This document shows positions 1-39,708 of a stretch of DNA of 39,708 nt, piece after piece. The stretch comes from a virus. Made by a program: the position numbers and the translations under genes. Every line of letters starts with the position of its first letter. Within the stretch, counting starts at the first letter, position 1. Under the pieces are notes generated by a model. The model saw only the letters and a program-made list of their open reading frames with translations. It searched no databases and was not told the origin of the DNA. The stretch lies in IMG/VR virus record IMGVR_UViG_3300045988_140580; one strand, written 5' to 3'.

Positions 1-81
1 ATCACCGTCGTCTTTGGCACATCCATTGCGACCATCTTCGGCGTATTCCTCATTCCGATTCTGTTCATCATCGTAGAAAAT
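1..81. repeat. Left copy of 81-bp terminal direct repeat (identical to 39628-39708). Candidate phage DTR, circular-assembly overlap, or att core.
   Basis: Exact identity of 1-81 with 39628-39708, read directly. The repeat has a higher GC content and a C-ending codon bias unlike the phage genes, and it is open in + frame 1, where it encodes a hydrophobic helix. Confidence 0.9.
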
Positions 82-180
82 ATCGGACACAGAGGGAAAC
101 CCTTTAGTAAGGTAAAGGAATCTGACGGTTGACCGCTGGACTCAGGAGCACAATAAGCAACTTATAAGCACTTTTGTCTC

Positions 181-1263
181 TCACGGGTAACTCCATGTTA
201 CTCGGTTGTCTGTGGAGTGTGTGTAGTATTTCAGAGTAGTTTCTATACTACTGTGACCCATCAGTTTGCTTACTCTCATAACGTCTACATGTTTCTCAGT
301 TATGAGTAGGGTAGCAAAAGTATGTCTCATGTCGTACAGGTGGTGTCCTCTACCCAGTACGGCATGGGTATACTTTTTGAATCGCATATTTACATTATCG
401 ACACTCATATAACCATACTGGCTCTTGAAGGAATAGAAGATATTATCCTTTGGGAGCCTTTTTATATTACTTACTAACCACTTACCATACTGCTCTTTGT
501 CTATCGGTACTATCCTATAACTGCTATCCTGTGTCTTCATCCCATCCTGTAGTTTTCCTCTGAATCCCAGGGATTTGTTGAAGTTCACATAGTTTTCCGT
601 AACATCTTCCTTGGTAAGCGCGAGTATTTCCTGTGGTCGTGCCCCAGTTATCATACCGATTACTATGTATATTTGGTAGACTAGGGGAAGCTTAGTAGAC
701 AAAGTTTTTTTATCTAGCAGCTTACTGACTTCCTCACTGGAGAATGTACGTATGTGTCTTTTGGGTTTACCCTTGATGGTCCTTATGGCACCTCTGCTTG
801 TCATTGGATTATTATCAAGGTATCCCTCGTATACCGCGGTTTCCAGTATAGCTTTGAAGTTCTTTCTCCATCTTGACAGGGTAGAAGTAGCGTAGCCATG
901 GGAAGCCAGACCTAGGAAATACCTATTGATATCCTGTGTAGTCAGATCATAAAACTTTGTCTTAGCTAACTTACTGCCTACTACATGTTTGTTATAGAAA
1001 TGCTTGATACCATTTAAGGTAGACTCACGATACACATTTTCCTTCAGTTCTATGAAGTGTTCCCAATATTCCTCTATGGTAGTAGGGGTGAAGTACTTTA
1101 TGTTTGTTCCTCGTACCTTATCAAAAAACTGCTCAACTTCCTGTCGGGTATCACACGTTTTACTAACTCGCTTACCATTACCGATGCATATAGCACCTTT
1201 GAATTTTCCATTTGGTGTCCTTGTTATAGAACCAGTACCTTTTTCTCTTCTTATTCTTTTCAT
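181..1263 (-). CDS. int: Tyrosine recombinase / phage integrase
   Basis: 360-aa ORF. The C-terminal catalytic region reads HDMRHTFATLL...LMGHSSIETTLKYYTH (R..HxxR..Y tyrosine recombinase motifs), and ARPQEILAL supplies the box A arginine. An RBS GAAAGGTGA lies upstream on the minus strand. It is the only large gene on the minus strand. Confidence 0.93.
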   Translation of the reverse strand: MKRIRREKGTGSITRTPNGKFKGAICIGNGKRVSKTCDTRQEVEQFFDKVRGTNIKYFTPTTIEEYWEHFIELKENVYRESTLNGIKHFYNKHVVGSKLAKTKFYDLTTQDINRYFLGLASHGYATSTLSRWRKNFKAILETAVYEGYLDNNPMTSRGAIRTIKGKPKRHIRTFSSEEVSKLLDKKTLSTKLPLVYQIYIVIGMITGARPQEILALTKEDVTENYVNFNKSLGFRGKLQDGMKTQDSSYRIVPIDKEQYGKWLVSNIKRLPKDNIFYSFKSQYGYMSVDNVNMRFKKYTHAVLGRGHHLYDMRHTFATLLITEKHVDVMRVSKLMGHSSIETTLKYYTHSTDNRVTWSYP

Positions 1264-1479
1264 ATATCACCTTTCTTCCCTAGATACTTTTAGTTGTTCC
1301 CTCTATGGGTAGGATAGCATAAGGGGACACAGTATTCCAGATGAAAATTGGAGAAAAATTTGTGATACTAGATTGATTGAGATCTCCTCAGATTTTCCCC
1401 CGTGTACCCCCTGGACAACAATATAAAATAAAATAAACTTAATTATATACTATTATATGTCTGAACAGAAACACATAAG

Positions 1480-1525
1480 GTCTCACGGTATCCCTGATAA
1501 TATCAAGGTTTACACGGTATCCAGT
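1480..1525. repeat. Direct repeat of CACGGTATCC(C/A)(T/G)TG at about 30-bp spacing (candidate protein-binding sites near int)
   Basis: tctCACGGTATCCctg at about 1480 and tttaCACGGTATCCagtg at about 1510. Confidence 0.4.
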
Positions 1526-1722
1526 GTCTATCTATTGCTTTTATTTATGATACACACGGAGCCGTTGTATTGATGTTATCAGTTTTTTTAATTAGTTGAA
1601 TGAGTCAACTATATGGATACTCAAGGATATATGATGGAAACATTAAGATATATGAACGAATGTTCATGTGATATTAAAAATTGCTCTATAAAATATCTGT
1701 CTATATACATTAGAAATACTTA

Positions 1723-1875
1723 TCACGTACATCAGAAATATTTATAAGATACATCAATGTTACTTATAATATACATTGGAAATACTTATAACATACATAT
1801 TCCAGGCATGGAGTATACTTATGACAGACACAGGAAATACGTATGATAGACACAGAATATGTTGGGATACATGGC
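1723..1875. repeat. Iteron-like array: about 7 imperfect tandem copies of a 22-bp unit GAAATACTTATNANNTACATCA
   Basis: Units begin at about 1723, 1745, 1767, 1789, 1811, 1834 and 1855, for example GAAATACTTATCACGTACATCA, GAAATATTTATAAGATACATCA, GAAATACTTATAACATACATAT and GGAAATACGTATGATAGACACA. The array is AT-rich and non-coding, and lies between int and the repressor module. Confidence 0.7.
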
Positions 1876-1944
1876 TTATGGTCTATAGCATATTGCTATT
1901 AATCTAAGCATCGAAAGAAGATAAAGCATTAACTAATTTTCTTA

Positions 1945-2337
1945 TTACTGTTTTGAGCGTATATACATAAAAGTACCAATAAGTAATATGATTCCGATAA
2001 TGATATTAAGAGATAATAAATAAGCTGTTTCATTTTTTAATTTATTAACTTCAGATTCTAATTGTTTTATTTTGTTATAATTTTGCGTTATTGTTTTTCC
2101 CTGTGCTTCATTTATTAATACTGTTTCAGATAAAACCTCATCAATACGCTCATTTGGCTGTAATGTTTGGGGATCTATATGCGGTTGAAAATTTCTATAT
2201 TTATCATTATACCACTGAACAAATGCATTATGTGTACCTCGGTCCCATGTATCATTTTTCCAGTCGTAGGCCATTATTTCCATAACAGAGACAAAGAGTA
2301 AACATAAAGAAATTATAATTTTGAAGAATATCTTCAT
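1945..2337 (-). CDS. Secreted/membrane protein (N-terminal signal peptide or TM, coiled coil, C-terminal TM). Candidate lysogenic-conversion or superinfection-exclusion protein.
   Basis: The ORF track gives 1945..2382 from a TTG start. The more plausible start is ATG 2337 (MKIFFKIIISLCLLFVSVMEIMA), preceded by GAGGTG. The C-terminal hydrophobic segment is LLSLNIIIGIILLIGTFMYI. It is co-oriented with the repressor and int. Confidence 0.5.
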   Translation of the reverse strand: MKIFFKIIISLCLLFVSVMEIMAYDWKNDTWDRGTHNAFVQWYNDKYRNFQPHIDPQTLQPNERIDEVLSETVLINEAQGKTITQNYNKIKQLESEVNKLKNETAYLLSLNIIIGIILLIGTFMYIRSKQ

Positions 2338-2434
2338 TTTATACACCTCAATTATATGTAAATTATAAGAATAGTATAGCAAAATATAGGTATCCTTAGA
2401 ATACTTTTGTATTCTTTAGATACCCATATTTTAG

Positions 2435-2611
2435 TTATTGCTTTTTATTTTCAGTTATTAGAATATTTTCATTATCATTAACATATTTTGTAATATGTCG
2501 TGTTAAATATCCGCTTACAGTGTCGCCTTTTATTTTTAGTATTTTTTGAAATTTGTTTTTTAGTTCACTATCTATTCTTATTTGCATGAACTTTTCTTTT
2601 GTGTCTTTCAT
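2435..2611 (-). CDS. Small ribbon-helix-helix (Arc/Mnt/CopG-like) DNA-binding protein, 58 aa. Candidate lysogeny repressor. Not in ORF track (under 60 aa).
   Basis: Hand translation of the minus strand gives MKDTKEKFMQIRIDSELKNKFQKILKIKGDTVSGYLTRHITKYVNDNENILITENKKQ*. The pattern is a beta-strand (FMQIRIDSEL) with alternating hydrophobics, helix A, a G-D-T-V-S-G loop (the G-x-S/T-x-S RHH hallmark) and helix B. An RBS AGAAGGGAAG lies 9 nt upstream. It is divergent from the early operon, with operators between them. Confidence 0.6.
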   Translation of the reverse strand: MKDTKEKFMQIRIDSELKNKFQKILKIKGDTVSGYLTRHITKYVNDNENILITENKKQ

Positions 2612-2637
2612 ATAATATCACTTCCCTTCTAATATTC

Positions 2638-2665
2638 ATTATAGCAGGTTTTTTAAGTTGTGACA
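2638..2665 (-). promoter_or_regulatory. Sigma70-like promoter for the RHH gene (minus strand): -35 TTGTCA (2665..2660), 16-nt spacer, -10 TATAAT (2643..2638)
   Basis: Read on the reverse complement. The -35 overlaps the operator half-site at 2660-2676. Confidence 0.45.
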
Positions 2666-2676
2666 ATGTAGTAAAA
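2660..2676. promoter_or_regulatory. Operator-like site O1 (half-conserved): TGTGACAATGTAGTAAA
   Basis: Shares CAATGTAGTAA with O2 and O3. Overlaps the -35 of the leftward promoter. Confidence 0.45.
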
Positions 2677-2692
2677 AAAAACAAATTAGGTA

Positions 2693-2721
2693 TTGACTTT
2701 GTCACTACATTGTAGTAATAT
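2693..2721 (+). promoter_or_regulatory. Sigma70-like early promoter: -35 TTGACT (2693-2698), 16-17-nt spacer, -10 TAATAT/AATATA (2715-2721)
   Basis: Near-consensus hexamers read directly. Operator O2 lies inside the spacer. The promoter is upstream of the first early gene (ATG 2822). Confidence 0.6.
2700..2717. promoter_or_regulatory. Operator O2: GTCACTACATTGTAGTAA (perfect 6+1+6 palindrome ACTACA-T-TGTAGT)
   Basis: Palindrome read directly. Located in the spacer of the early promoter. Confidence 0.6.
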
Positions 2722-2780
2722 ATACTCAACGAAAGGGAACATATCAAAATATAAAGTTCCCAAAAATTTTTAACTTCTTA

Positions 2781-2797
2781 TGTCACTACAATGTAGT
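2781..2797. promoter_or_regulatory. Operator O3: GTCACTACAATGTAGTA (palindrome ACTACA-A-TGTAGT) in the early-transcript leader
   Basis: Second perfect copy of the O2 palindrome, about 25 nt upstream of the first early gene's RBS. Confidence 0.55.
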
Positions 2798-2821
2798 ACA
2801 ATCAAGAAAGGAAGGGTAAAC

Positions 2822-3193
2822 ATGGAAGAAGTAACAAAGGAAATGATAATGGACGCTTTGACTGATTATGTTTCTGAATTGTCTGAAGAAGACACAATTA
2901 CACTATGGAATGCCTATTGTGAAGACTACAACCAGATGCACCGATTCATTTATCTAAATGATTTTGACGAACTCGACAGCGTTTTTAAGTCACCTTCAGA
3001 AGCTTTGTATATGGCACAGTATTCACCGTATCACATCAACGACAGATATTTTACTTACAGTTCTTTTTGTGGGCTTATGTCTTTCAGTTTTCTTACAGAT
3101 GAAAATAGTCCGGTAGTAGTTGATGAATTAGTTAGCTACCTGATGAGTCAAAGAGCTGTATATATTTTAGTAAAAAGTCAGTTAGAAAGGTAG
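2822..3193 (+). CDS. Early protein, strongly acidic (about 22 D/E vs 7 K/R in 124 aa). Candidate DNA-mimic / anti-restriction protein (by composition only).
   Basis: ATG 2822 with RBS AAAGGAAGGG; the ORF-track start at 2780 is less likely. It is the first gene of the host-transcribed operon, the position of T7 gene 0.3 (Ocr). Confidence 0.6.
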   Translation: MEEVTKEMIMDALTDYVSELSEEDTITLWNAYCEDYNQMHRFIYLNDFDELDSVFKSPSEALYMAQYSPYHINDRYFTYSSFCGLMSFSFLTDENSPVVVDELVSYLMSQRAVYILVKSQLER

Positions 3194-3202
3194 GTAATTA
3201 CT

Positions 3203-3418
3203 ATGACACAGAGAATCACGGAAAAATTTTTAGATAACATGATTAAAAACATCAATAACAGAACTGGCAGAAAGTACTTCTTAGAATATGCATACGGTGG
3301 GGTAAAACTGGCGCATACATACGAAAACGGCGGATACACAGATGAAAGTTATAGAATGACAAAACGAGAAATGTATTATGTCCTAGATGCTTTACAGCAC
3401 TTCATCAATCACAATTAG
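3203..3418 (+). CDS. Hypothetical early protein (71 aa)
   Basis: ORF with RBS GAAAGGTAGG. No recognisable motif. Confidence 0.5.
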   Translation: MTQRITEKFLDNMIKNINNRTGRKYFLEYAYGGVKLAHTYENGGYTDESYRMTKREMYYVLDALQHFINHN

Positions 3419-3426
3419 TGGATTTT

Positions 3427-3480
3427 ACAGGGTGCCTTAGAAAACTAAGGCACTCGATAAAGGCCACTAGAAGCCTTTAG
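3427..3480 (+). other. Conserved intergenic RNA element, copy A: two stem-loops (GUGCCUUAG-AAAA-CUAAGGCAC; AAAGGC-CACUAGAA-GCCUUU)
   Basis: Paralogous to 4177-4230, with compensatory base changes that preserve both stems. Confidence 0.6.
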
Positions 3481-3507
3481 GCAGTTAGGTAGAAAGGAAG
3501 TAATATC

Positions 3508-3963
3508 ATGACAAGAATTAGCCTGTATCACGTAGAGTTAGTAAAAGATAGCAGCCATAACTATAACGTCTCAAGAGATATGTCTAGCCCGTATAATGTC
3601 ATTCATATGCTTGTAAATACATTGCATCTGGACAAACGCAACGTAGAAAATTTTGGCATGATTGCAGTTAATACGCAAAACAAATTAATAGCTGTACAGA
3701 TTTTAACGCAAGGATCTATCGATACATCTATAGCAAGTACTAGAGAAGTCTTTCAATGCGCTTTACTGCATAATGCACGTGCCATAATACTATTCCATAA
3801 TCATCCTTCCGGGAATTCTGGTCCTTCTAAAGAAGATATAGCAATAACTAAAAGGATAGTTAAAGCTGGGGAACTACTAGGTATTCCGGTATTGGACCAT
3901 GTGATTATAGGTAGTGAGAACGATTACTTTAGCATGAGAAGTGAGGGAATTATCAATGACTAA
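3508..3963 (+). CDS. RadC-like JAB/MPN-domain protein (DUF2466 family)
   Basis: Motif ILFHNHPSGNSGPSKEDIAITKRI matches the RadC-like HNHPSG...PS.xDxxxT signature. 151 aa. Confidence 0.85.
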   Translation: MTRISLYHVELVKDSSHNYNVSRDMSSPYNVIHMLVNTLHLDKRNVENFGMIAVNTQNKLIAVQILTQGSIDTSIASTREVFQCALLHNARAIILFHNHPSGNSGPSKEDIAITKRIVKAGELLGIPVLDHVIIGSENDYFSMRSEGIIND

Positions 3964-4180
3964 CAAAGAATTAGCAAGAAAAATATACGATACGGGGCGT
4001 AATGAAACAACTACAGGAAACTGGGTTTTTCACATAAGTGAGTTAGATGGCAGGACGCCAGAAGAAGGTATGTATATCCTGTTAGATGAGTATAGAGAAG
4101 ACATTTTAGACATAACGTGTACAGATACAGAACTGGATATCATTTTCGCATTAGCTGTTTGTCCTTATTTTCAAGAGTGA
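3956..4180 (+). CDS. Hypothetical early protein (74 aa)
   Basis: ATG 3956 preceded by GAGGGAA. It overlaps the end of the RadC-like gene. Confidence 0.5.
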   Translation: MTNKELARKIYDTGRNETTTGNWVFHISELDGRTPEEGMYILLDEYREDILDITCTDTELDIIFALAVCPYFQE

Positions 4181-4230
4181 ATTTAACAGAGTACCTTAGA
4201 TAACTAAGGTATTCGATTAAGTCCACTAGT
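4177..4230 (+). other. Conserved intergenic RNA element, copy B: GUACCUUAG-AUAA-CUAAGGUA(U); UAAGUC-CACUAGU-GACUUA
   Basis: Same architecture as copy A. The loop CACUAG is conserved while the stems co-vary. Confidence 0.6.
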
Positions 4231-4264
4231 GACTTATCACATGTAACCAGAAAGGATGATACAT

Positions 4265-4846
4265 ATGTTAGCACAGGAAATTTTAAAAGTATTAGCACTC
4301 GATATGACTGAAAAAGAAAAAGTAGAAAAAATCCAAAAACTATGCACCGATGATATTTATGTACACACATGTAGCAAGCCTGTAGGCAATCGGTTTAAAT
4401 TCATACAGAAAGAGTGTAAGAAGGCTAAAAGACCTTGCTTAACAAAGGTACACAGATCGGAAAAATATGGCCTAGTCTGGACCGATGCTTATGTATTGTG
4501 CACGTTTAGAGATGATACATTTCCTACTGATTTATTAGCAACAGAAAAGGAAAAACTAAATGTAGACAATGTTTTAAAGAGTGTAGGTAATGATAAAGCC
4601 AATGCAAGTGTTGAATACAAGGACGTAAAAGCACGGCTTGCTTGTCTATCGACGAAAAAAGAAAAAGAAGCGGACATAATCGAAATAGGGGATTCAATTT
4701 TCAAGACTTGCTTAGTTGACAAAGTTTTCAAATTTTATGGCCTGGACAAACTGAATTTACATACAAAAAATAGCTGTGTTGCATACGGTTATACAGAAAA
4801 TGGTGATGCATTCTTAATTTGTCCGATGAAAAAGGAAGTTAAATAG
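4265..4846 (+). CDS. Hypothetical early protein (193 aa), Cys/Lys-rich, no recognised motif
   Basis: ATG 4265 with RBS AGAAAGGA at correct spacing; the track start at 4256 is too close to the RBS. It is the last gene before the terminator hairpin. Confidence 0.55.
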   Translation: MLAQEILKVLALDMTEKEKVEKIQKLCTDDIYVHTCSKPVGNRFKFIQKECKKAKRPCLTKVHRSEKYGLVWTDAYVLCTFRDDTFPTDLLATEKEKLNVDNVLKSVGNDKANASVEYKDVKARLACLSTKKEKEADIIEIGDSIFKTCLVDKVFKFYGLDKLNLHTKNSCVAYGYTENGDAFLICPMKKEVK

Positions 4847-4951
4847 ATATGAGTACAAAAGAGAAGATAGAAGGATATGCATACTACATCATACTTTGTC
4901 TCTTGTGCATGTTGTGTGAATACCTAGATAAAAACTTAATATAGTTAAGCT

Positions 4952-5005
4952 AAAAATAGCGTGTACTTAGAAATTTTTAAGTCACTCTAAGTACACGCTA
5001 TTTTT
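4952..5005 (+). terminator. Perfect 19-bp inverted repeat (AAAAATAGCGTGTACTTAG ... CTAAGTACACGCTATTTTT) with a 16-nt loop, followed by a T-run. Intrinsic terminator and/or RNase III-type site.
   Basis: Arms at 4952-4970 and 4987-5005 read directly. Located between the early genes and the RNAP gene. Confidence 0.75.
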
Positions 5006-5035
5006 ATATATAAATGCATGAACAAACGTTCTGTT

Positions 5036-5058
5036 AATTGTCCCACTATTAAGAGAAA
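5036..5058 (+). promoter_or_regulatory. Phage-RNAP promoter P1 (variant): ATTGTCCCACTATTAAGAGAAAT, followed by a degenerate copy ATTTGTCCCTTATTTAGAAAGG
   Basis: Member of a 4-copy family sharing ATTGTCCCACTAT(T/C)AAGAGA. Immediately upstream of the RNAP start codon. Confidence 0.6.
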
Positions 5059-5095
5059 TATAATTTGTCCCTTATTTAGAAAGGTGGTTAAAAAT

Positions 5096-7636
5096 ATGTA
5101 TACGCTGGAACAACAATTGGAAGTTGAAAAAATGTATAAGACAGTAGCGGAAGATTCCTTTTTTTCAAAATTGAATCAAGACAAGCAAGAAGGTAACTAT
5201 TCTAGAAGTTCCATAGGTAAAGGAATTATAAAGCAGGTTATGGCACCTTTTACAAAAAACATACACATAAAACTACAGGAAGTCACACTGAGTAAAAAAG
5301 GAGTAAAACCTAAATATTATGCAGTTCTCAAAAAATTCATGGATTACTATATAAACGACATGGATACTTTTGTTAATACATTAGCATTACAAACAATAAA
5401 GGTAGTAGTAAACAACATTGCTACCAATAGAAAAAACTGCAATATGATAGCTAGTGTTATAGGTACAGAACTACAAGATGAAGTAGAATTATATGCCTTT
5501 ATGCATACTGTCGAACATGCAGAAACAAGATATAGTAAAGACATAAATAAACGTGTAGGGAGGAGTTTCAAGAAGAATTTTATCTTACATGCATATCAAG
5601 GGAATGATTTTGTATTTCCTAAATTCAAAAAAACGGAGCTTACAGCTTTAGGCATGGAAATGATAGCTATACTTACAGAATCAGTAGACTTTTTCTACAT
5701 AGCTATGACAGGCGAAAAAGGTTTATTGGAGTTACATCCTAGTGATATGTTTTTACAAGCTGTCATAAAGTCGGAAGAAAACATTATGTCTAGGACGGTT
5801 AAATTAGTACCAACTATAATACCTCCTAAAGCATGGAAAGGAATATTTGAAGGAGGGTATTATGGGGCGTTAGGTATCCAAAATAGATTTATGCGTCATC
5901 ATCCCTATATGAAAGGCACAAAAACATTAAGTAGATACCTGGCACGGCTTAATGAATTAGACCTAACACCTATTTACAGAGCAGTTAATAGGATCCAGAA
6001 CACTGCCTATCATATCAATAGTTATATGCTCGATGTAGTAGGTTCTATATTAGAAAGCGGTGGAAATAGGGCAGGTATACCCCAGATGAAACCATATGAA
6101 AAACTTCCGGCTTTTCCGTATGGAGACAAAGAGATAGAAGAGTCTGAGGAATTGCAAGTGCTATTTAAAGAACATAAGAAGAAAATGATAACCATGATAC
6201 ATAAAGAAAACCAGAGACAAGGCAAGGCGCTAAGGTGCACCATGGTGTACAAATTAGCTAAAGATTTTAGCAGATTTGAGACAATATACTTCCCAATGAA
6301 TATTGATTTTCGAGGGCGTATATATCCCATTCCTACGGGTCTTAATCCACAGGGGGATGATATGACAAAAGGTTTACTGGAATATGCTTTTCCTAAAGCT
6401 GTGTCTAGTGAAGATTCCTTGCAATGGCTTATGATTCACGGTGCAGGGTTAGCAGGGCACGATAAAATTTGTCTGGATGAACGTGTACAATGGGTACAGG
6501 ATAACAAAGATAACATTGTAAATAGTGTCGATAATCCCATAGGGTACACATGGTGGCAAGAGCAGGATAAACCTTTCCAGTTCCTAGCGTGGTGCAGGGA
6601 ATACGTCAATGCCTTAGCTTATATGTTTGCACACAATGGCTCTTTAATAGGGTTCGAGTGTCATTGTGTAATAGCATATGACGGTACCTGCTCTGGACTT
6701 CAGCATTACTCTGCATTACTGAGAGATCCTGTTGGTGGCAGTGCGGTAAATCTGGTGGACCATGATAAGCCTAGTGATATTTATCAGGAAGTAGCAAATA
6801 AAGTTCTGATATCAGTAGAGAATGATTCTCATAATGGCACTATAGAAGATACAGACAGAAAAGGAAATAAGATACCTGGTACAAAAGCAATAGCGGAAGC
6901 ATGGCTTGCACATGGTATCACACGGAAAGTTTGTAAACGCCCTGTAATGACACTAGCCTATGGATCTGGGCAATATGGTTTTGGGGACCAGATTTTTGAA
7001 GATACGACAAAAGACAATCCCTTCTTTAATGGTGTAGGTGACTTCAGGGCAGCTAGATATATGGCTAGTAAGGTATGGGAGACTGTACAGACAACTGTAG
7101 TTTCTGCTACACAGGGCATGTCTTTTCTTAAGGAGTTAGCTAATGAGTTAGCGTCTGATAATATGCCTGTAGAATGGATTACACCGTTGGGATTGCCTGT
7201 ACAACAGATGTATCTTGATTTACATACGGAATGCTTCAGGTTACGGTTTGGTGGTGCCAGTGTGCGCTATCGTATATATGTTACAGAGCCGAAGGAAGGG
7301 GAAGACACAGACAAAAAGAAGCAGGTGTCTGGTGTTGCTCCTAACTTCATTCACTCCCTAGATGCTACTCACTTGATGATGTCTGTTAATGCTTGTGAGA
7401 ATGTGTCTAACTTCACTACGGTCCATGATTCATTTGGTACGTCATTAGGTGAAGCAGAGGAGCTGAGAGAAGTTATTAGACAGCAAATGGTTAAATTGTA
7501 TAGTGAAAATGAGCCACTAAAAGATTTTAAAGCTCATGCTGAAGAATTGCTAGGCAAACATATTGATATAGATTTACCCCGAAAAGGCACATTAGATATC
7601 AATTCTATTTTGTCTAGCAAATTTGTGTTTCACTAA
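5096..7636 (+). CDS. T7-like single-subunit DNA-dependent RNA polymerase
   Basis: The 846-aa protein has TTVHDSFGT (T7 RNAP motif C HDSFGT) and a palm/fingers region similar to T7 gene 1. The start is ATG 5096 after AAAGGTGG; the track's upstream ATG 5018 would place promoter P1 inside the gene. Confidence 0.95.
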   Translation: MYTLEQQLEVEKMYKTVAEDSFFSKLNQDKQEGNYSRSSIGKGIIKQVMAPFTKNIHIKLQEVTLSKKGVKPKYYAVLKKFMDYYINDMDTFVNTLALQTIKVVVNNIATNRKNCNMIASVIGTELQDEVELYAFMHTVEHAETRYSKDINKRVGRSFKKNFILHAYQGNDFVFPKFKKTELTALGMEMIAILTESVDFFYIAMTGEKGLLELHPSDMFLQAVIKSEENIMSRTVKLVPTIIPPKAWKGIFEGGYYGALGIQNRFMRHHPYMKGTKTLSRYLARLNELDLTPIYRAVNRIQNTAYHINSYMLDVVGSILESGGNRAGIPQMKPYEKLPAFPYGDKEIEESEELQVLFKEHKKKMITMIHKENQRQGKALRCTMVYKLAKDFSRFETIYFPMNIDFRGRIYPIPTGLNPQGDDMTKGLLEYAFPKAVSSEDSLQWLMIHGAGLAGHDKICLDERVQWVQDNKDNIVNSVDNPIGYTWWQEQDKPFQFLAWCREYVNALAYMFAHNGSLIGFECHCVIAYDGTCSGLQHYSALLRDPVGGSAVNLVDHDKPSDIYQEVANKVLISVENDSHNGTIEDTDRKGNKIPGTKAIAEAWLAHGITRKVCKRPVMTLAYGSGQYGFGDQIFEDTTKDNPFFNGVGDFRAARYMASKVWETVQTTVVSATQGMSFLKELANELASDNMPVEWITPLGLPVQQMYLDLHTECFRLRFGGASVRYRIYVTEPKEGEDTDKKKQVSGVAPNFIHSLDATHLMMSVNACENVSNFTTVHDSFGTSLGEAEELREVIRQQMVKLYSENEPLKDFKAHAEELLGKHIDIDLPRKGTLDINSILSSKFVFH

Positions 7637-7654
7637 GCAAGAACATAGAGTTTT

Positions 7655-7720
7655 GCAGAAGCACGTATAGAGTAGAAGCATAGGTTTAGACAAAAGTCAA
7701 GACTTCTGCTTCTACTTTTT
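7655..7720 (+). terminator. Hairpin(s) plus T-run after the RNAP gene (AGTAGAAGCA ... TGCTTCTACTTTTT; alternative GCAGAAG/CTTCTGC)
   Basis: 10-bp stem at 7671-7680 / 7707-7716 followed by TTTTT. Confidence 0.55.
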
Positions 7721-7743
7721 AATTGTCCCACATATACTGAAAA
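7721..7743 (+). promoter_or_regulatory. Promoter half-site variant AATTGTCCCACATATACTG, in tandem 27 bp upstream of P2
   Basis: Shares ATTGTCCCAC with the promoter family but diverges downstream (CATATA instead of CTATTAAGAGAGA). The same tandem arrangement recurs at 39358. Confidence 0.4.
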
Positions 7744-7746
7744 TCT

Positions 7747-7778
7747 TATTGTCCCACTATTAAGAGAGAAGGGAAAGG
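7747..7778 (+). promoter_or_regulatory. Phage-RNAP promoter P2: TATTGTCCCACTATTAAGAGAGAAGGGAAAGG
   Basis: Consensus family member. The CACTAT core matches T7 promoters (TCACTATAGGGAGA). It occupies the position of T7 phi1.1. Confidence 0.75.
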
Positions 7779-7884
7779 AATACCTTAGGTATATTAAGTA
7801 TTCCTTAGTTACTTTCTTGGTTACTTACTTAGTAGTTAGTTAGTAGTATTCCTAAGGAATACTAGGAAGGAGCAGAGAAGAGAA
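7776..7884 (+). other. Structured 5' leader downstream of P2 (12-bp stem AGTATTCCTTAG ... CTAAGGAATACT around a loop rich in TAGT/TTAG repeats)
   Basis: Inverted repeat at 7797-7808 / 7851-7862. An alternative pairing is GGAATAC with GTATTCC. Confidence 0.45.
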
Positions 7885-8307
7885 ATGTACAGCGTAGGAG
7901 ATTATGTAGTTATTCGAGAAATACCGGAAACCAATCGTTTTTCTAAATATAACGGTTTGGTTGCTAAAATTATCGGTAAACCTTACTCACAAATTTTAGT
8001 CTATGAAGTATGTATCTGTGGGTTAGAAGATGAAGGTAGTATCTATGTTGAAAGTGTTAATTTAGAACCATATGAAGATGTAGATTGCTACCATGACTCC
8101 CACTACAGAAACAGTGTCTTAGAACCCATTCTGGTAATGCAGAGTATGTTCACGCATGAAGAGTTCATAGGATTTCTCAAGGGAAACATTCTGAAATACA
8201 GATTACGCCTGGGACATAAAGACGATATCCAAAAGGAAATGGACAAGATACAGAGATACGAACAGTGGTTAGCAGAAGCAGAGGAGGGTAAGAAAATTAC
8301 GATATGA
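7885..8307 (+). CDS. Hypothetical protein (140 aa), first gene after P2
   Basis: ORF with RBS GGAAGGAG. No confident motif. Confidence 0.55.
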   Translation: MYSVGDYVVIREIPETNRFSKYNGLVAKIIGKPYSQILVYEVCICGLEDEGSIYVESVNLEPYEDVDCYHDSHYRNSVLEPILVMQSMFTHEEFIGFLKGNILKYRLRLGHKDDIQKEMDKIQRYEQWLAEAEEGKKITI

Positions 8308-8789
8308 TTTACAAAATTGAATTTCATAAATTACGGGATGATGTAGTAGTTCCACAGATTCAGACGGAGGGTTCAGCAGGTGCAGACTTAGTGGTACCAG
8401 ATGATACCTATATCCCACCTTTCCATAGTGTGGGTCACGGAACGCTTGTGCCTTTAGGGTTCTCTTTAGATATCCCTAAAGGAATGCAGGTACACATTAT
8501 GTTACGGTCAAGTGTAGGGCTGAATACTCCATTACGATTATCTAATGGTGTCGGTTTGATTGACTCAGATTACAAAGGCGAAATTTGTCTGCTATTAGAT
8601 AATTTGTCTAAAAATATCGTTTTTATCAAAAGTGGGACTCGAATAGCACAAATGCTACCTTTTTGCAGTGCGAAGTGGGAACTTTCTTCTATTGTCCCAC
8701 TATCAAGAGAGAAGAGGGATAAAATCCCAATCCAGAAAAGAACAGGTGGATTCGGTTCCACCAACAGAAAAAGGAGCGATAGCGAATGA
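8304..8789 (+). CDS. dut: dUTP pyrophosphatase (dUTPase)
   Basis: Trimeric dUTPase motifs: GSAGADL (motif 2), GLIDSDYKGE (motif 3) and RTGGFGSTN (motif 5). 161 aa. Promoter P3 is embedded in its 3' part. Confidence 0.85.
   Translation: MIYKIEFHKLRDDVVVPQIQTEGSAGADLVVPDDTYIPPFHSVGHGTLVPLGFSLDIPKGMQVHIMLRSSVGLNTPLRLSNGVGLIDSDYKGEICLLLDNLSKNIVFIKSGTRIAQMLPFCSAKWELSSIVPLSREKRDKIPIQKRTGGFGSTNRKRSDSE
8690..8721 (+). promoter_or_regulatory. Phage-RNAP promoter P3: TATTGTCCCACTATCAAGAGAGAAGAGGGATA (inside dut, upstream of SSB, like T7 phi2.5)
   Basis: Family member with one substitution (T to C). Confidence 0.7.
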
Positions 8790-9328
8790 AAATCAAAGGG
8801 AAAGCATTTTGGGCAAAAGTAAGGACACCAGAAACATATCAGGGAAATCCTGTGGGATACTCTGTACAGGTTGAAATGCCTGAGGAAAATCTTCAGCGCA
8901 TGAAGGATTACTTTACTGACAAATGCAAAAATGAACAGTTTACAGACAAACGTTGTGATGGTGAAATCACACTGCCAATCAAGGTCGATGAAACCACAGG
9001 TAGAAAAACGGTAAAGGTAAAGACTAAACACTTCTATGTCGAAAAAGCTACAGGCAAGCAGGTTAATAAGGTAATCCCTATTTACAACGAATATGGTGAA
9101 ATTATTCCGGAAGATGTACTTATTGGGAACGGCTCTGATGTAGAAGTAGCCTGTAACTGCAAATTCTTCTATGATTCTGCTAAGAAGTGGGGCGTACGGC
9201 TCTACTTACAGAGCATGATGGTCACTAACCTTGTCAAATACAGTACAGACGGTTCAGATGAATTCGAGTTTAAGAAACGTCCTGAAGTGGAAGAAGCAGA
9301 CGTGCAGGAAGATGAGGTGGATTTCTAA
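8786..9328 (+). CDS. T7 gp2.5-like single-stranded DNA-binding protein
   Basis: 180-aa protein. The acidic C-terminal tail ends in ...EEADVQEDEVDF, with a terminal Phe as in gp2.5. Gene order matches T7. Confidence 0.8.
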   Translation: MKIKGKAFWAKVRTPETYQGNPVGYSVQVEMPEENLQRMKDYFTDKCKNEQFTDKRCDGEITLPIKVDETTGRKTVKVKTKHFYVEKATGKQVNKVIPIYNEYGEIIPEDVLIGNGSDVEVACNCKFFYDSAKKWGVRLYLQSMMVTNLVKYSTDGSDEFEFKKRPEVEEADVQEDEVDF

Positions 9329-9333
9329 TACGA

Positions 9334-9804
9334 ATTGGTGGCATACATAAGAATAAACGTGGTACACGTTCAAAGTATGAAGAGACACTTTTACAGAATC
9401 TAAAAGACAGAAGTGTCTCTTTTGCATATGAGCAGTATTCTTTGAAGTACACAGTGGAACATACATATACACCTGATTTTGTACTACCTAACGGCATTAT
9501 TGTAGAAGCCAAAGATGGTGAAGGTGGGTATGCTCATGTTGGCAAAAGCTCATACTACAGGGGTTCTCTGGATTCCGCAGCCAGAGGGAAGATGTTGCGT
9601 ATCAAGAAGCTGTATCCGAACTTAGATATACGCTTTGTCTTCCGAACAGATCAGACACTGCATAGTCTGGGAAAAAAATGTAGTACATGGTGTAAAGAAC
9701 ATGGTTTCAAGTATCACATAGGTGACTCCATACCAGACAGTTGGCTGAAAGAAGAGCCTAAGGATACAGAAGGATTACTACTGAAAAAGAGAAAGGAGAA
9801 ATAG
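9334..9804 (+). CDS. T7 endonuclease I-like Holliday-junction resolvase. Start codon uncertain (no in-frame ATG/GTG/TTG upstream of the conserved N-terminus).
   Basis: HTYTPDFVLPNGIIVEAKDG matches T7 gp3 YTPDFLLPNGIFVETKG. The reading frame is open from 9316, and the upstream peptide (GGIHKNKRGTRSKYEETLLQNLKDRSVSFAYEQY) aligns with the T7 gp3 N-terminus. The track starts the ORF at TTG 9442. Confidence 0.8.
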   Translation: MGGIHKNKRGTRSKYEETLLQNLKDRSVSFAYEQYSLKYTVEHTYTPDFVLPNGIIVEAKDGEGGYAHVGKSSYYRGSLDSAARGKMLRIKKLYPNLDIRFVFRTDQTLHSLGKKCSTWCKEHGFKYHIGDSIPDSWLKEEPKDTEGLLLKKRKEK

Positions 9805-9807
9805 TTA

Positions 9808-10155
9808 TTGTTAAAGTTTAGAGACAGAGAAGATACAGAATTTGTACGTGTCTATTGGCATGATTTAAATGGTCTGTCTGTCCCTGGACTGCTTAAGGAG
9901 ATTAGGAGAACTAAGGGTGACTTTACTGCTCCATATCACATGATTATTACTAAGGATGGTACGATTCATCATATTAGAAATCTGGAAGCGGTTGCAGGGT
10001 ATGAACTGGCAGACAATGAGTTTGGAGTGCACATCTTAGTTGATTCCATTAGTAGAGATTTAATGACTAGAGTACAGCGGTTATCTCTGGAGGATGTTCT
10101 AAATGATATCAATGTAAAATATCCAGATATACCTGAAGAAAACTATTATGAATGA
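9808..10155 (+). CDS. T7 lysozyme (gp3.5, amidase_2/PGRP)-like protein, C-terminally truncated and lacking the Zn ligands. Probable RNAP-regulatory, non-catalytic homolog.
   Basis: Collinear with T7 gp3.5 (FRDREDTEFVRVYW / LKEIRR..G...YHMIITKDGTI / EFGVHILVD), but it ends about 35 aa early. T7 positions H122/K128/C130 are absent. TTG start. Confidence 0.65.
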   Translation: MLKFRDREDTEFVRVYWHDLNGLSVPGLLKEIRRTKGDFTAPYHMIITKDGTIHHIRNLEAVAGYELADNEFGVHILVDSISRDLMTRVQRLSLEDVLNDINVKYPDIPEENYYE

Positions 10156-11740
10156 TAATGTTCCTATTAAAACGCATTTACCGTGTCCGGATTGTGGTTC
10201 TCATGATGCATTAACAGAGTATTCAGATGGGCACACATATTGTTTCTCATGTCAGACAGTCAGGAATACTTTAGCGCGTGAAAGTAAATTGATTGACATA
10301 AACTCTTTGTCTTTCTCACCACTAAAAAAGCGCGGTATTATGACAAACACATGTGAGAAATATCATTATTACACAGGATATCACAACGGGAAACCTGTTC
10401 ACGTAGCTTGCTATTATGACGACACAGGGGAGCTGATAGGTCAGAAAGTACGCTATCCAGATAAGACGTTTGAGACAATCGGAAAGATTTCTAAAAGGTT
10501 TTTCGGACAGGAGCTGTTCTCTAGCAGGGGAAAGTTAGTTATCACTGAAGGTGAAATTGACTGTCTTACTGTCTCACAGCTGCAGGGGAATAAGTATCCA
10601 GTTGTGTCCATCCCAACAGGTGTTGTGTCTGCTAAAAAAGTGATAACGCATAACATGGAGTGGCTTTCACAGTTCGATGAAATCATTCTGATGTTCGATA
10701 TGGATGAGCCGGGGAGAAAAGCCGTAAAAGAATGTGCAGGCCTTCTCAAAGGCATTAAGGTAGCTAATTTACCTATGAAAGATCCTAACGAATGTCTGTT
10801 AAATGACAAAGGTCAAGCTGTGATAAATGCTATATGGAATGCGAAACCATACAGGCCGGATGGAATAGTTAATGGTGCTGAACTATGGGATATTGTAGAT
10901 AGTGAGGAAGACACAAAAGGGTACAGTTATCCTTGGGATATTCCATTAAATGACATGACACTCGGTATGCGAAAAGGCGAACTGGTAGTGATTACCGCAG
11001 GGACAGGCGTAGGTAAAACTACATTTGTCAGACAACTTATGTATGAATTAGGTGTCAATCAGGGCCGGAAGATAGGCTGTATGATGCTAGAAGAAAATAT
11101 TAAACGTACAGCAATCGGCCTTATGTCTATCCATACAGGTAATAGATTGCACTTAAATAGACATGCAATATCGGAAGAAGAATATCATAAAGCATTCGAT
11201 GAGACACTGGGTACAGGTCACTATGTCTTATACAATCATTTTGGTTCACTCGATGGTGACAACTTACTCAACAAAATACGATACCTGGCTATCTCAGAAG
11301 AGTGTGATTTCATAGTTTTAGATCATGTGTCTATAGCTGTTTCGGGTCTTGAAGGAGATAACGAGCGGAAACTCATAGACTATCTTATGACACAAATGAG
11401 GAGCATAGTAGAAGAAACTGGTGTAGGTATGTTGGTTATCAGTCACTTAAGGCGACCAGATACATCGCAACAATCTCATGAGGAAGGCGGAATAACGTCT
11501 TTGTCTCAGTTAAGAGGTTCTCATGCTATTTCTCAGTTATCAGACATAGTTATTGGCTTGGAGAGAAACCAACAGGATGAGGATGAACATATGAAAAACA
11601 CCATAAAAATACGGGTTCTTAAGAATCGGTTCAGTGGCGATACTGGAATAGCCGGATACCTAGAGTACAGTAAGAAGACAGACAGATTAGAAGTAAAAGG
11701 AAAGAGGGAGAATAATAATGATGATGAAGCAGAGTTTTAA
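10148..11740 (+). CDS. T7 gp4-like primase-helicase
   Basis: Zinc ribbon CPDCGSHDALTEYSDGHTYCFSCQ, TOPRIM ITEGEIDCLTV, Walker A GTGVGKTT, and helicase motifs. Confidence 0.93.
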   Translation: MNDNVPIKTHLPCPDCGSHDALTEYSDGHTYCFSCQTVRNTLARESKLIDINSLSFSPLKKRGIMTNTCEKYHYYTGYHNGKPVHVACYYDDTGELIGQKVRYPDKTFETIGKISKRFFGQELFSSRGKLVITEGEIDCLTVSQLQGNKYPVVSIPTGVVSAKKVITHNMEWLSQFDEIILMFDMDEPGRKAVKECAGLLKGIKVANLPMKDPNECLLNDKGQAVINAIWNAKPYRPDGIVNGAELWDIVDSEEDTKGYSYPWDIPLNDMTLGMRKGELVVITAGTGVGKTTFVRQLMYELGVNQGRKIGCMMLEENIKRTAIGLMSIHTGNRLHLNRHAISEEEYHKAFDETLGTGHYVLYNHFGSLDGDNLLNKIRYLAISEECDFIVLDHVSIAVSGLEGDNERKLIDYLMTQMRSIVEETGVGMLVISHLRRPDTSQQSHEEGGITSLSQLRGSHAISQLSDIVIGLERNQQDEDEHMKNTIKIRVLKNRFSGDTGIAGYLEYSKKTDRLEVKGKRENNNDDEAEF

Positions 11741-12197: not shown

Positions 12198-12458
12198 ATG
12201 ACGTTTACATTACATGTTATTAAAGGTTGTGCATACTGTGATGCTATTTTGTCTTTATATCCATCATTGGTAAAGAGATATCCTAAGTTATATTTCAATA
12301 TGAAATGTGATGAAAGTGCAAATGAGGGTACAGTATATCCATATATTGAAGCATATCATCTTGATGTTGACGGTGTGTATAGAGACAAAAAAGATTCCAT
12401 GCTATACATCAATGATGTTGTAGATTTTGTAGAAAGGAGTCTTAATAAAGGTAAATGA
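12198..12458 (+). CDS. Glutaredoxin/NrdH-like thioredoxin-fold protein
   Basis: CAYC (CxxC) after the first beta-strand. Lies between nrdG and nrdD. ATG 12198 follows AGGTGG. Confidence 0.5.
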   Translation: MTFTLHVIKGCAYCDAILSLYPSLVKRYPKLYFNMKCDESANEGTVYPYIEAYHLDVDGVYRDKKDSMLYINDVVDFVERSLNKGK

Positions 12459-28742: not shown

Positions 28743-28760
28743 GAAAGGTGGTGGAATTTC

Positions 28761-33455: not shown

Positions 33456-33461
33456 CACATT

Positions 33462-34721: not shown

Positions 34722-34754
34722 TAAGTGAATAATAAATGTAGGTAATCTTATGAT

Positions 34755-34794
34755 GAGGTATTTTAAGAGTTCTTGAGAACACTCAAAATACCTC
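34755..34794 (+). terminator. Long near-perfect hairpin after the tail fiber gene (GAGGTATTTT...AAAATACCTC with inner GAGT/ACTC). No T-run; terminator or RNA processing site.
   Basis: Inverted repeat read directly. Confidence 0.4.
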
Positions 34795-34840
34795 AGAAAA
34801 CCTTGGTTACATTTGTGATTACGTAATAGGAGAATGATAG

Positions 34841-35044
34841 ATGAAAAACTATATTATTCGTATGCAGGATGAACGTGCGAAATTAGAAACTAAATGGGAC
34901 AAACTTATTAAATATGTGAGCGAGCATTATGATAACCTTGATGGAACAGAAATATACTTGATGCAACAGCAAATTAAGTGTATGGAAAAATATATCATGT
35001 TTCTTAACGCTCGTATTGATCATGCTAAACTCAAAGAAAAGTAA
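34841..35044 (+). CDS. Hypothetical small protein (67 aa)
   Basis: RBS AGGAGAATGA. No TM segment. Confidence 0.45.
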   Translation: MKNYIIRMQDERAKLETKWDKLIKYVSEHYDNLDGTEIYLMQQQIKCMEKYIMFLNARIDHAKLKEK

Positions 35045-35058
35045 AAGGACGATGAAAA

Positions 35059-35529: not shown

Positions 35530-35591
35530 ATGCTTTTCGTTCTACTTTTGTACCTTTTTCTCTTAAACCTTATAAAAGGTGGTGTTATTTA

Positions 35592-35729
35592 AATGATTGA
35601 TATTTCTGCAATACTCAACAGTTGCTTTTTGTGTTTCTTTTTCGCTACTATCCTTCACACACGCATAGATGAAAAAGACACCTGTACAATTATTCTTTGT
35701 TTTATTTGGTTACAATGTATTATCCTTAG
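35592..35729 (+). CDS. Small hydrophobic Cys-rich peptide (45 aa), not in track. Possible antiholin or membrane peptide.
   Basis: ATG 35592 after AAAAGGTGGTG. Hand translation gives MIDISAILNSCFLCFFFATILHTRIDEKDTCTIILCFYLVTMYYP*. Confidence 0.3.
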
Positions 35730-35769
35730 TTTATTTTATACTGTTATTAAACAAGGGGGTGTTATTTAG

Positions 35770-36366: not shown

Positions 36367-36369
36367 GAT

Positions 36370-37296: not shown

Positions 37297-37324
37297 ACCG
37301 ACTGGGAAGGGGATAGAGACACAT

Positions 37325-37651: not shown

Positions 37652-39335
37652 TGACGCTAAGAAAGATTTTCGTAAGTTTCTGTTCATTTTATGGGATGAG
37701 ATTGCGCTCCCTGAGCCTACAGGCATACAATATGCCATAGCGTCATTATTGATGAAATGCCCACAGAAACGATTCATTATAGAAGGATTCCGTGGTGTAG
37801 CTAAGTCGTTTATTACATGTGCTTATATTGTTTGGTGTCTATGGAATAACCCGCAGCTGAAATGCTTGATAGTGTCTGCTAGTAAGGATAGAGCGGATGC
37901 TAATGCGGTATTCATACGACGTATCATTTACTTACTAGACTTTTTGTCTGATCTTAAGCCTAGAGATGGTCAACGTAATACACAGAACCTTTTTGATGTT
38001 GGCTTAGCAATACCTGATATTTCTCCTTCTGTAAAATCCGTTGGTATTACAGGTCAGATAACAGGCAGCCGTGCAGACATATTGGTTGCAGATGACGTAG
38101 AGATACCAAACAATTCCAGTACACAGGTCCGTAGAGACAAACTATTCGAGGATGTAAAAGAATTTGATGCTATTATAAAGCCGGGGGATAGTAGTAAGAT
38201 TATATACCTTGGAACTCCCCAAAATGAGATGTCACTATATAATGAATTACAGAATCGTGGCTATGGTGTCTTTGTATTCCCTATCGTATATCCGGAAACA
38301 CCAGAGGAACGTGAATACTATGGAGACAAATTAGCTCCCTTTATTGCTGAACCGTATGATAGAAATCCGGAGCTATACGCAGGCAAGCCAACAGATCCTA
38401 AACGATTCCCAGAAGAAGAAATTGAAGAACGTAGATTATCCTACGGTAAGGCAGGGTTTTCTTTACAGTTCAAACTGAATACTAACTTGTCTGACTATGA
38501 AAAGTATCCATTAAAAGTACAAGACCTGATTGTCTCAGAAGTGGATTTGGATGAAAGTTCACTGAAGTGGGCATGGGCAAGCAGTTATGAGTACAGATTA
38601 AACTCATTGCCTTGTGTAGCAGTCAAAGGTGATTATTTCTATAGAGAGTTCGGTAGAAGTAAGGAGACAGCTAAATATACAGGTACCGTTATGTCTATAG
38701 ACCCATCTGGTAGGGGAACAGATGAAACTGCTTACTCTATTGTGAAATACCTGAATGGTTATCTTTTTGTAGTAGAAGTAGGTGGTTATTCAGAAGGATA
38801 CTCTGATTCTGTACTGACACAGTTAGCAAATAAAGCAAAAGTGTATGGAGTAAATGAGATTGTCGTAGAAGCTAACTTCGGGGATGGCATGTTTACACAG
38901 TTATTCAAGCCCATACTGAATAAAATACATCCATGCTCCATTCAAGAAGTGAAGAACACTAAGCAGAAAGAAGCTCGTATTATTGATACACTGGAACCTG
39001 TTATGATGAGACACAAGTTAATAGTAGCAGAGTCAGTCATTAAAGATGATTATATAATATATGAAAATAAAGGACAGAATTACTCTCTGATATATCAACT
39101 GACACGCCTAAGCAGAGACAAAGGTTCACTATCACATGATGACCGCCTGGACTCCTTAACAATGGCTGTGTCGTATTGGTTAGAAGTTATGGATAGGGAT
39201 GAGCAAGTAGGGATGGATGAACAACTGGATGACTTTCTAGAAGCAGCTATGGATGATGACAGGGGCATCTTCTCACTGATGTATGGTAATACCGATATGA
39301 ATAAAAATAGGAATATAATGAATAAAAAATGGTAG
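37620..39335 (+). CDS. Terminase large subunit, T7 gp19-like. The conserved N-terminus is encoded upstream of the track's start, with no canonical start codon.
   Basis: Very high identity to T7 gp19 (FRGVAKSFITCAYIVW, LIVSASKDRADAN, SPSVKSVGITGQITGSRADI, IYLGTPQ, YGKAGFSLQF, IDPSGRGTDETAY). The frame is open from 37620 and encodes LLTQWTQEQIDDAKKDFRKFLFILW, which aligns with T7 MSTQ...DFVAFLFVLW. The first in-frame ATG is at 37752. Confidence 0.9.
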   Translation: MLTQWTQEQIDDAKKDFRKFLFILWDEIALPEPTGIQYAIASLLMKCPQKRFIIEGFRGVAKSFITCAYIVWCLWNNPQLKCLIVSASKDRADANAVFIRRIIYLLDFLSDLKPRDGQRNTQNLFDVGLAIPDISPSVKSVGITGQITGSRADILVADDVEIPNNSSTQVRRDKLFEDVKEFDAIIKPGDSSKIIYLGTPQNEMSLYNELQNRGYGVFVFPIVYPETPEEREYYGDKLAPFIAEPYDRNPELYAGKPTDPKRFPEEEIEERRLSYGKAGFSLQFKLNTNLSDYEKYPLKVQDLIVSEVDLDESSLKWAWASSYEYRLNSLPCVAVKGDYFYREFGRSKETAKYTGTVMSIDPSGRGTDETAYSIVKYLNGYLFVVEVGGYSEGYSDSVLTQLANKAKVYGVNEIVVEANFGDGMFTQLFKPILNKIHPCSIQEVKNTKQKEARIIDTLEPVMMRHKLIVAESVIKDDYIIYENKGQNYSLIYQLTRLSRDKGSLSHDDRLDSLTMAVSYWLEVMDRDEQVGMDEQLDDFLEAAMDDDRGIFSLMYGNTDMNKNRNIMNKKW

Positions 39336-39357
39336 ATTTCTGGTATCCCAGAAATCT

Positions 39358-39380
39358 TATTGTCCCACATATAGGAAAGT
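39358..39380 (+). promoter_or_regulatory. Promoter half-site variant TTATTGTCCCACATATAGGAAAG, in tandem 28 bp upstream of P4
   Basis: Same arrangement as 7721-7743. Confidence 0.4.
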
Positions 39381-39384
39381 CGCT

Positions 39385-39418
39385 TATTGTCCCACTATTA
39401 AGAGAGAGAAGGGAAGAC
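39385..39418 (+). promoter_or_regulatory. Phage-RNAP promoter P4: TTATTGTCCCACTATTAAGAGAGAGAAGGGAAGAC (right-end promoter, like T7 phiOR)
   Basis: Full family member downstream of the terminase gene. Confidence 0.7.
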
Positions 39419-39627
39419 AAAGGAAAACTAAAGTATCTAAGGAACTCTAATTATACTAAGTATACATATGTACTCAGTTAGCTGTCCTTTAGCGCACTGA
39501 AGTATTCCTGTATCCTTCAGTATCCCTAAAGTATCAAACACTATATCCCATATCGGATAGACAAGGAATAAGCAACTAACAGCTAAACACTTACCACTAA
39601 TTACACACTCATAGGAAGCCTATGGGC

Positions 39628-39708
39628 ATCACCGTCGTCTTTGGCACATCCATTGCGACCATCTTCGGCGTATTCCTCATTCCGATTCTGTTCATCATCG
39701 TAGAAAAT
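39628..39708. repeat. Right copy of the 81-bp terminal direct repeat
   Basis: Identical to 1-81. Confidence 0.9.

Follow-up and report, generated by a model that had tools for sequence, protein, structure and literature searches.

The window (the whole 39,708-nt stretch of DNA analysed here) is very probably the integrated-form genome of a temperate T7-like podovirus of human-gut Megasphaera, and its terminal repeat an attachment-site (att) duplication rather than a direct terminal repeat (DTR). The repeat lies within the 3′ end of a host gene encoding an RND multidrug efflux permease, next to the phage integrase gene (int). The features of the window are itemized in Table 1.

Table 1. Features of the window and of its attachment site, in window coordinates.
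Feature	Position	Strand	Basis or remark
Left repeat copy, attL-core equivalent; codons 1006–1032 (TM12) of the host RND permease	1..81	+	Frame 1
Last 89 nt of the 97-nt block (repeat plus ATCGGACA)	1..89	+	Host ATCGGACAtcgttcg and phage ATCGGACAcagaggg flanks share 8 nt
Probable strand-exchange interval, 24 nt, GTATTCCTCATTCCGATTCTGTTC	43..66; right copy 39670–39693	+	SNPs in AM44-1BH
Partner of the candidate Int-binding repeat, ATATCGGACACAGAGGGAA	79–97		Two-copy family, 79% identity
Phage-supplied pump C-terminus IGHRGKPFSKVKESDG and stop	82..132	+	First 8 nt still within the identity block
Tyrosine integrase, 360 aa, converging on the att core	181–1263	-	PF00589, E=6.7e-16, covering 3–171/172
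CTTATTGTCCCAC motif copies	5034, 7719, 7745, 8688, 10565, 39356, 39383	+	Pattern search of the window
Large terminase TerL, T7-type, last phage gene before attP/attR	37752..39335	+	Pfam PF22530
Non-coding phage arm (P arm), TerL to core	39336..39619	+	Flank kept in attP and attR of relatives
Tandem CTTATTGTCCCAC motifs in the P arm	39356–39368, 39383–39395	+	Two copies
Weak candidate Int-binding repeat ATATCGGATAGACAAGGAA	39553..39571	+	Repeat family D4 in attP contig L024
First 89 nt of the 97-nt block (CTATGGGC plus repeat)	39620..39708	+	Host ...gagtcaCTATGGGC and phage ...aagcCTATGGGC flanks share 8 nt
Right repeat copy, attR-core equivalent	39628..39708	+	L027: phage TerL-side flank before, host tail codons and nadE after

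The window begins and ends with the same 81 nt. The two copies are exactly identical (1–81 and 39628–39708), and no third copy is found on either strand of the window in a search taken down to 15-mers. In + frame 1 the repeat reads ITVVFGTSIATIFGVFLIPILFIIVEN, a hydrophobic helix. A reading made earlier from the sequence alone had described this repeat, its open frame and a preference for C-ending codons unlike that of the phage genes, and each of these observations is borne out. Fifteen of the 27 codons end in C and GC3 is 0.67, compared with C3 of 0.136 and GC3 of 0.33 in 11 large phage genes. When the repeat peptide was resampled with phage codon usage 0 of 100,000 sequences reached 15 C-ending codons; with the usage of the host RND gene, 8% did so. 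The codon usage of the repeat is host-like and not phage-like. Across the joined ends an ORF runs from ATG 39622 through the repeat to a TGA at 130–132, giving the 45-aa peptide MGITVVFGTSIATIFGVFLIPILFIIVENIGHRGKPFSKVKESDG. This junction ORF is present as the sequence-only reading had proposed, but its ATG did not originate as a phage start codon: it is a host Met codon, situated within the host-identical block.

The host gene that carries the core encodes a 1048-aa RND multidrug efflux permease of Megasphaera, and the core corresponds to its last transmembrane helix (residues 1006–1032). The exact 81-mer had no match among IMG/VR viral contigs, nor a 48-mer of the core among JGI metagenome contigs. 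A degenerate DNA pattern for MGITVVFGTS(I/V)ATI was searched in a species-representative genome set and found 12 loci, all in Megasphaera or an unnamed Negativicute. At 10 of them the peptide closes an RND permease gene that is not interrupted, and 60–72 of the 81 core positions there are identical to the window. A protein search returned short ORFs carrying this peptide on both phage-sized and host-sized contigs, one of them labelled at its source as an HAE1 exporter fragment. A search of bacterial genomes had been proposed in the earlier reading, which expected the att core to lie where a host membrane-protein gene has its 3′ end; the core was located there, and the full set of att forms was recovered. 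The 45-aa junction ORF reaches only E=0.58 in Pfam, against the last 27 positions of ACR_tran, and the 27-aa repeat peptide by itself gives no Pfam hit. The assignment of the core peptide to ACR_tran becomes convincing only once the full-length host gene is considered.

Both hybrid sites are found on a single host molecule. The ENA contig ERZ27293773:k109_76964 (194,310 bp, Megasphaera) carries attL (L018) and attR (L027), and was compared with the window over the two prophage ends, about 11–12 kb each. The attL end is 100.00% identical to window 1–11263, with 0 mismatches over 1–180; beyond window position 1 it continues as the body of the 1048-aa RND permease, followed by an MFP adaptor, TetR and other host genes. 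The attR end is 100.00% identical to window 27752–39708, beyond which come host tail codons and nadE. On this contig 39,708 bp, the length of the window, separate the outer edges of the repeats. Scaf2 of the cultured isolate Megasphaera sp. AM44-1BH likewise carries hybrid attL and attR (L008 and L012), 39,461 bp apart, and its prophage is 95% identical.

The phage site attP has the TerL-side flank, a single copy of the core and a continuous path into int. It is found in a 2,322-bp contig that is 99.5% identical (L024), and is likewise continuous in a 40,042-bp contig (L004, 98.5%) and a 42,039-bp contig (L003, 87%). These attP junctions could in principle stem from tandem double lysogens rather than from excised phage. 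Unoccupied attB is found in two contigs (L036 and L035), in which nadE comes straight after the RND gene and no phage lies between them, and the native pump tail is IGRRSKKKPQGVQRIQDV or IGHRSKKKNQGVQRIQDV. Searching for the native C-terminus with a 260-aa query found the empty sites; a shorter, 77-aa query gave fragments only and no clear empty site. A pattern built to span attB, from the host left flank, N81 and the host right flank, had no match in JGI metagenomes. A core common to phage attP and unoccupied host attB is present in two pairs of contigs: the exact shared block is 96 nt for L024 with L036 and 95 nt for L003 with L035, and only 14 nt for the cross pairs. The 95-nt block of the second pair includes 10 SNPs relative to the window. 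At every SNP the attP alleles agree with the attB of their own host lineage, as expected if halves of the core are exchanged in each cycle, or if the phages are specific to host lineages.

In the lysogen that matches the window the identity block of attL and attR is 97 nt long, and comprises CTATGGGC (8 nt), the 81-nt repeat and ATCGGACA (8 nt). At core position 42 the attL of AM44-1BH shows the host allele, and at position 67 that of the phage; its attR is the other way round. This places the crossover most simply within core positions 43–66, taking this one lysogen and assuming that mismatch repair did not act.

The phage supplies the end of the pump gene. In lysogens the pump terminates with the 16-aa phage tail IGHRGKPFSKVKESDG, whereas at empty sites it terminates with the native 18-aa tail, IGH/RRSKKKPQGVQRIQDV; a replacement C-terminus of this kind had been predicted from the window sequence. 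A 47-aa ORF at attR is the displaced native 3′ fragment of the pump gene. The chimeric RND protein of the lysogen scores above the curated cut-off of NF000282 (NCBIfam) over residues 3–1031 and matches Pfam ACR_tran over residues 2–1030. The RND family models end at residues 1030–1033, ahead of the part of the tail that differs, so that the conserved pump protein is preserved and the cytoplasmic tail alone altered. The tail swap is presumably neutral.

Three contigs show variations at this locus. In one (L002, 1–190) the sequence ahead of this RND 3′ site is AT-rich and unlike the TerL-side arm, with the contig beginning only 187 nt upstream; this suggests a second element using the same attB. 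In another Megasphaera species (L001, 4590–4660) a 33-nt tandem duplication lies within the core of the attR of a related phage, so that VPMMFIIVETF is encoded twice. Imprecise recombination or replication slippage may have left this scar. The empty-site contig L035 has a 312-aa ORF on the opposite strand (1378–2316), just upstream of a called 398-aa RND 3′ fragment; this ORF may represent an insertion disrupting the pump gene of that strain.

The integrase converges on the att core. The sequence-only reading had put the core about 100 bp from the 3′ end of int, and the repeat does end 99 nt from the int stop codon. Beyond its Pfam match the protein also matches the PHROG 1 integrase (E=2e-51) and aligns to the structures of Tn1549 Int (6EN0) and XerH/XerD. 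In the alignment with Tn1549 Int the motifs ARPQE, MRHT, GHS and KYY are in register, and the first His of the R-H-R-Y set seems to be Tyr (YDMRH). The protein is presumed to be active. An identical Int protein is encoded on 14 contigs, several of which carry attL and the host RND operon. A tyrosine recombinase gene adjoins the attachment site, the arrangement of a tyrosine-integrase integration module. A tRNA attachment site was excluded, as ARAGORN finds no tRNA gene in the window.

Short repeats around attP were considered as arm-type sites and were too weak to be accepted; for AATAAGCAACT the observed count is reached in 4 of 100 shuffles. The two-copy ATATCGGATAGACAAGGAA/ATATCGGACACAGAGGGAA family could have arisen by chance.

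The remainder of the window is a T7-like genome. Genes for a single-subunit RNA polymerase (RNAP), primase-helicase, family A DNA polymerase, portal, gp10-like capsid, nozzle and T7-type TerL are present in T7 order, and by gene content and order the window is a T7-like (Autographiviridae-type) podovirus. The integrase gene accompanies this set. Megablast of window 1–25000 against INPHARED phages gave no near DNA match. TerL finds its best matches among T7-like phages that infect Proteobacteria (Delftia, Aeromonas, Ralstonia and Vibrio), at 55–58% amino acid identity. When the TerL protein was taken from TTG 37749 it had no match in the collection, and the called start is ATG 37752. With that start, 101 indexed blocks of the collection contain the identical protein, and contigs >50 kb are present in 29 of these. 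Host nadE follows TerL and the att site in nine of the ten TerL matches listed; the contig of the other (L034) stops shortly past the att site. An anaerobic ribonucleotide reductase, NrdD, is encoded at 12455–14218 (E=4.5e-94), and fits a strictly anaerobic host.

The 13-mer CTTATTGTCCCAC, allowing up to two mismatches, occurs seven times in the window, always on the + strand and mostly between genes, and none of 100 shuffles reaches seven. These motifs are probably promoters of the phage RNAP. The tandem pair just past TerL would transcribe across attP; in T7 the promoter phiOR is located in the same place, after TerL. The RNAP ORF (5018–7636) is 872 aa long from ATG 5018, and 846 aa as called on closely related contigs; the promoter-like motif at 5034 lies within the first 30 nt of the long ORF, and the true start is probably downstream. 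Nearer the left end a 58-aa ORF (2435–2611, - strand) has a weak RelB/ribbon-helix-helix match that falls below the cut-off (E=0.004). A divergent pair of sigma-70-like promoters (2666→2638 on the - strand and 2699→2726 on the + strand) lies between this ORF and the early genes, and the two together form a candidate lysogeny switch. Beside the 58-aa ORF is a 130/145-aa ORF (1945–2382, - strand) that is membrane-protein-like and has no family match.

The length of the repeat is best explained as a by-product of assembly where att is truly duplicated. Each end of the window is set 8 nt inside an edge of the 97-nt block, the start at one edge and the end at the other. A de Bruijn unitig that keeps k=89 bases of each branch would overlap itself by 2×89−97=81 nt, and the unique phage part of 39,530 nt plus 2×89 nt gives 39,708 nt, the length of the window. 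We infer k=89 for the window solely from the symmetry of the 8-nt insets. Names of MEGAHIT contigs in the collection (k109, k119 and k141) indicate k-lists in steps of 10. A unitig with the standard k=99 was rejected, as it needs a 117-nt block and on the left the host flank already diverges 8 nt beyond the repeat. Assembly at a different k gives different ends. The Logan contig SRR413734_3446 (k=31) is 100% identical to the window over the 11.2 kb compared, and its length of 39,590 nt equals 39,530+2×30, as predicted for k−1=30 nt shared at each branch. Its first base corresponds to window position 60, which leaves 30 nt up to the right edge of the block. Two further Logan contigs, from variant phages, start 30 nt before positions 60 and 67, which are the two SNP positions that differ among att copies. 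The assembly with k=109, where k is above 97, reads through the repeat into the host contig.

The behaviour of these ends bears directly on whether the repeat could be a true T7-type DTR, present at both ends of virion DNA for concatemer formation and packaging. The phage is T7-like, the repeat is located in the terminase-to-early-gene region where T7-like DTRs sit, and two phage-promoter-like motifs follow TerL, all of which would suit a DTR. The cyanophage P-SSP7 has 206-bp DTRs that were missed by circular assembly (PMC3350473). The repeat is, however, host coding sequence with host codon usage, host DNA immediately borders the 100%-identical sequence at either end in the 194-kb contig, and the edges of the window lie 8 nt inside the 97-nt block without any sequence discontinuity. 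The contig ends shift from 30 nt into the block (k=31) to 89 nt (the window) to read-through (k=109), and because they move with k they reflect the behaviour of graph branches and not fixed termini. The ends thus depend on the assembly parameter and the repeat is not specific to the phage. A plain DTR had been held open as an alternative in the earlier reading; it is not supported, and we consider it extremely improbable.

An overlap left by assembly had also been put forward there, and this is correct to the extent that a break in the graph sets the 81 nt; the break falls at the att duplication, and is not a random k-mer overlap. If the repeat were instead an arbitrary overlap of a circular assembly, with k=81 bases left on both ends, it would carry the usual signature of circular de Bruijn contigs, an exact terminal repeat of k nt, and two relatives (L003 and L004) are indeed phage-length contigs that are broken elsewhere. 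To our knowledge 81 is absent from the common default k-lists of assemblers. The overlap is centred in the 97-nt block rather than placed without regard to sequence features; the chance that an 81-mer would fall wholly within that block is ~17/39,627 (~4e-4), and the independent k=31 assembly breaks at the same block with exactly the predicted length, a recurrence not expected of an arbitrary cut. We consequently give very little credence to an arbitrary overlap. The remaining alternative accepts the same biology, with the window trimmed from a longer host contig at the attL/attR repeats by a prophage-boundary tool, and not a k=89 unitig. The prophage occurs on many host contigs, and between the repeat edges of the 194-kb contig it measures exactly 39,708 bp, as trimming would give. 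In the sole exactly matching lysogen, however, the maximal direct repeat is 97 nt and not 81, and a tool would be expected to report the maximal one. Trimming also leaves unexplained the symmetric 8-nt insets, for which the unitig model accounts. We regard it as unlikely, while allowing it some weight.

Taking the window as a prophage cut at its att duplication, the course of integration may be outlined as follows. Beside int the phage carries a 97-nt segment that matches the end of the RND permease gene. Int would recombine attP with attB at the 3′ end of that gene, with exchange in core positions 43–66, and integration places about 39.5 kb of phage between the pump gene and nadE. The pump ORF remains intact, the phage supplying TM12-identical codons and a new 16-aa cytoplasmic tail, while the native 18-aa tail stays behind in the 47-aa pseudo-ORF at attR. 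An assembler working with k below 97 would then cut the prophage body out at the duplicated block, and in the window the 81-nt overlap would remain. On this explanation, the best available, the 81-nt repeat is not a physical feature of virion DNA. Should the phage have T7-type DTRs, as P-SSP7 does, these are probably located in the non-coding stretch that separates TerL from the early genes.

T7-like phages are usually regarded as strictly lytic, and the present element is a T7-like prophage of a gut anaerobe for which all four att forms are documented. There is also a caution for virome catalogues. An exact terminal repeat usually leads to a contig being counted as a complete DTR genome, but the contig can be a prophage body cut at the att duplication, and in such cases the length of the repeat equals 2k minus the length of the att block. 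Comparing the ends of one element assembled at differing k is a simple check for att artefacts. The wider proposal is of a widespread and truly temperate lineage of RNAP-encoding T7-like phages in gut Megasphaera (a diderm Firmicute), stably integrated as a prophage in the RND gene, with attP tracking the attB of its own host and with a rewriting of the tail that possibly modulates efflux or regulation of the pump. We see the case for this proposal as evenly poised.

By analogy the mechanism is the classic one in which an element integrates at a gene's 3′ end and the ORF is reconstituted, as seen with e14 and phage 21 at icd. Coliphage 21, like e14, integrates into the 3′ end of E. coli icd. 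For e14 the icd ORF is rebuilt from a homologous copy of the gene end that the element brings, with a slightly altered C-terminus, and the native icd′ fragment is kept at the other junction (PMC6379469). The Megasphaera prophage is likewise a tyrosine-integrase element in the 3′ end of a protein gene, with a reconstituted ORF and a displaced fragment at the other junction. It differs from e14 in its target, an RND permease gene of a Negativicute; in its identity block of 97 nt, compared with ~163 nt; in the tail past the block, which is non-homologous (16 aa in place of 18 aa); and in being a T7-like podovirus.

Earlier work mentions RNAP-encoding T7-like prophages in Pseudomonas putida KT2440 and, briefly, in Megasphaera hexanoica (bioRxiv 10.64898/2026.02.16.706137; PMC7693777), and LUZ100 is a T7-like phage with temperate features (PMC10134795). 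The element described here resembles these as an RNAP-encoding T7-like element that is integrated or has temperate features. In the literature searched Megasphaera elements appear only as BLAST outgroups or homologues, with no account of att site, target gene or prevalence. Closer parallels for the att site are found among marine phages. The cyanophages P-SSP7 and S-TIP37 are T7-like, encode a tyrosine integrase and have attP just downstream of int, and their integration has been shown experimentally (PMC8776855). They target tRNA-Leu, with a 42-nt match in P-SSP7, and integrate rarely, no stable lysogens having been found (PMC8776855). The Megasphaera phage shares with them a T7-like genome and an attP near int that exactly matches a segment of a host gene; unlike them it targets protein-coding sequence, and it is present as a prophage in the genome of a cultured isolate and in many long metagenomic host contigs. 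Pelagiphages of the HTVC019P type are also T7-like, with a tyrosine integrase and site-specific integration, and attL/attR hybrids have been recovered from metagenomes (bioRxiv 10.1101/410191). Their attB sites are tRNA genes with cores of 11–46 nt, and attP lies between int and the RNAP gene (bioRxiv 10.1101/410191). In the Megasphaera phage, by contrast, TerL and the 3′ end of int flank attP, and the shared block consists of 95–97 nt of coding sequence.
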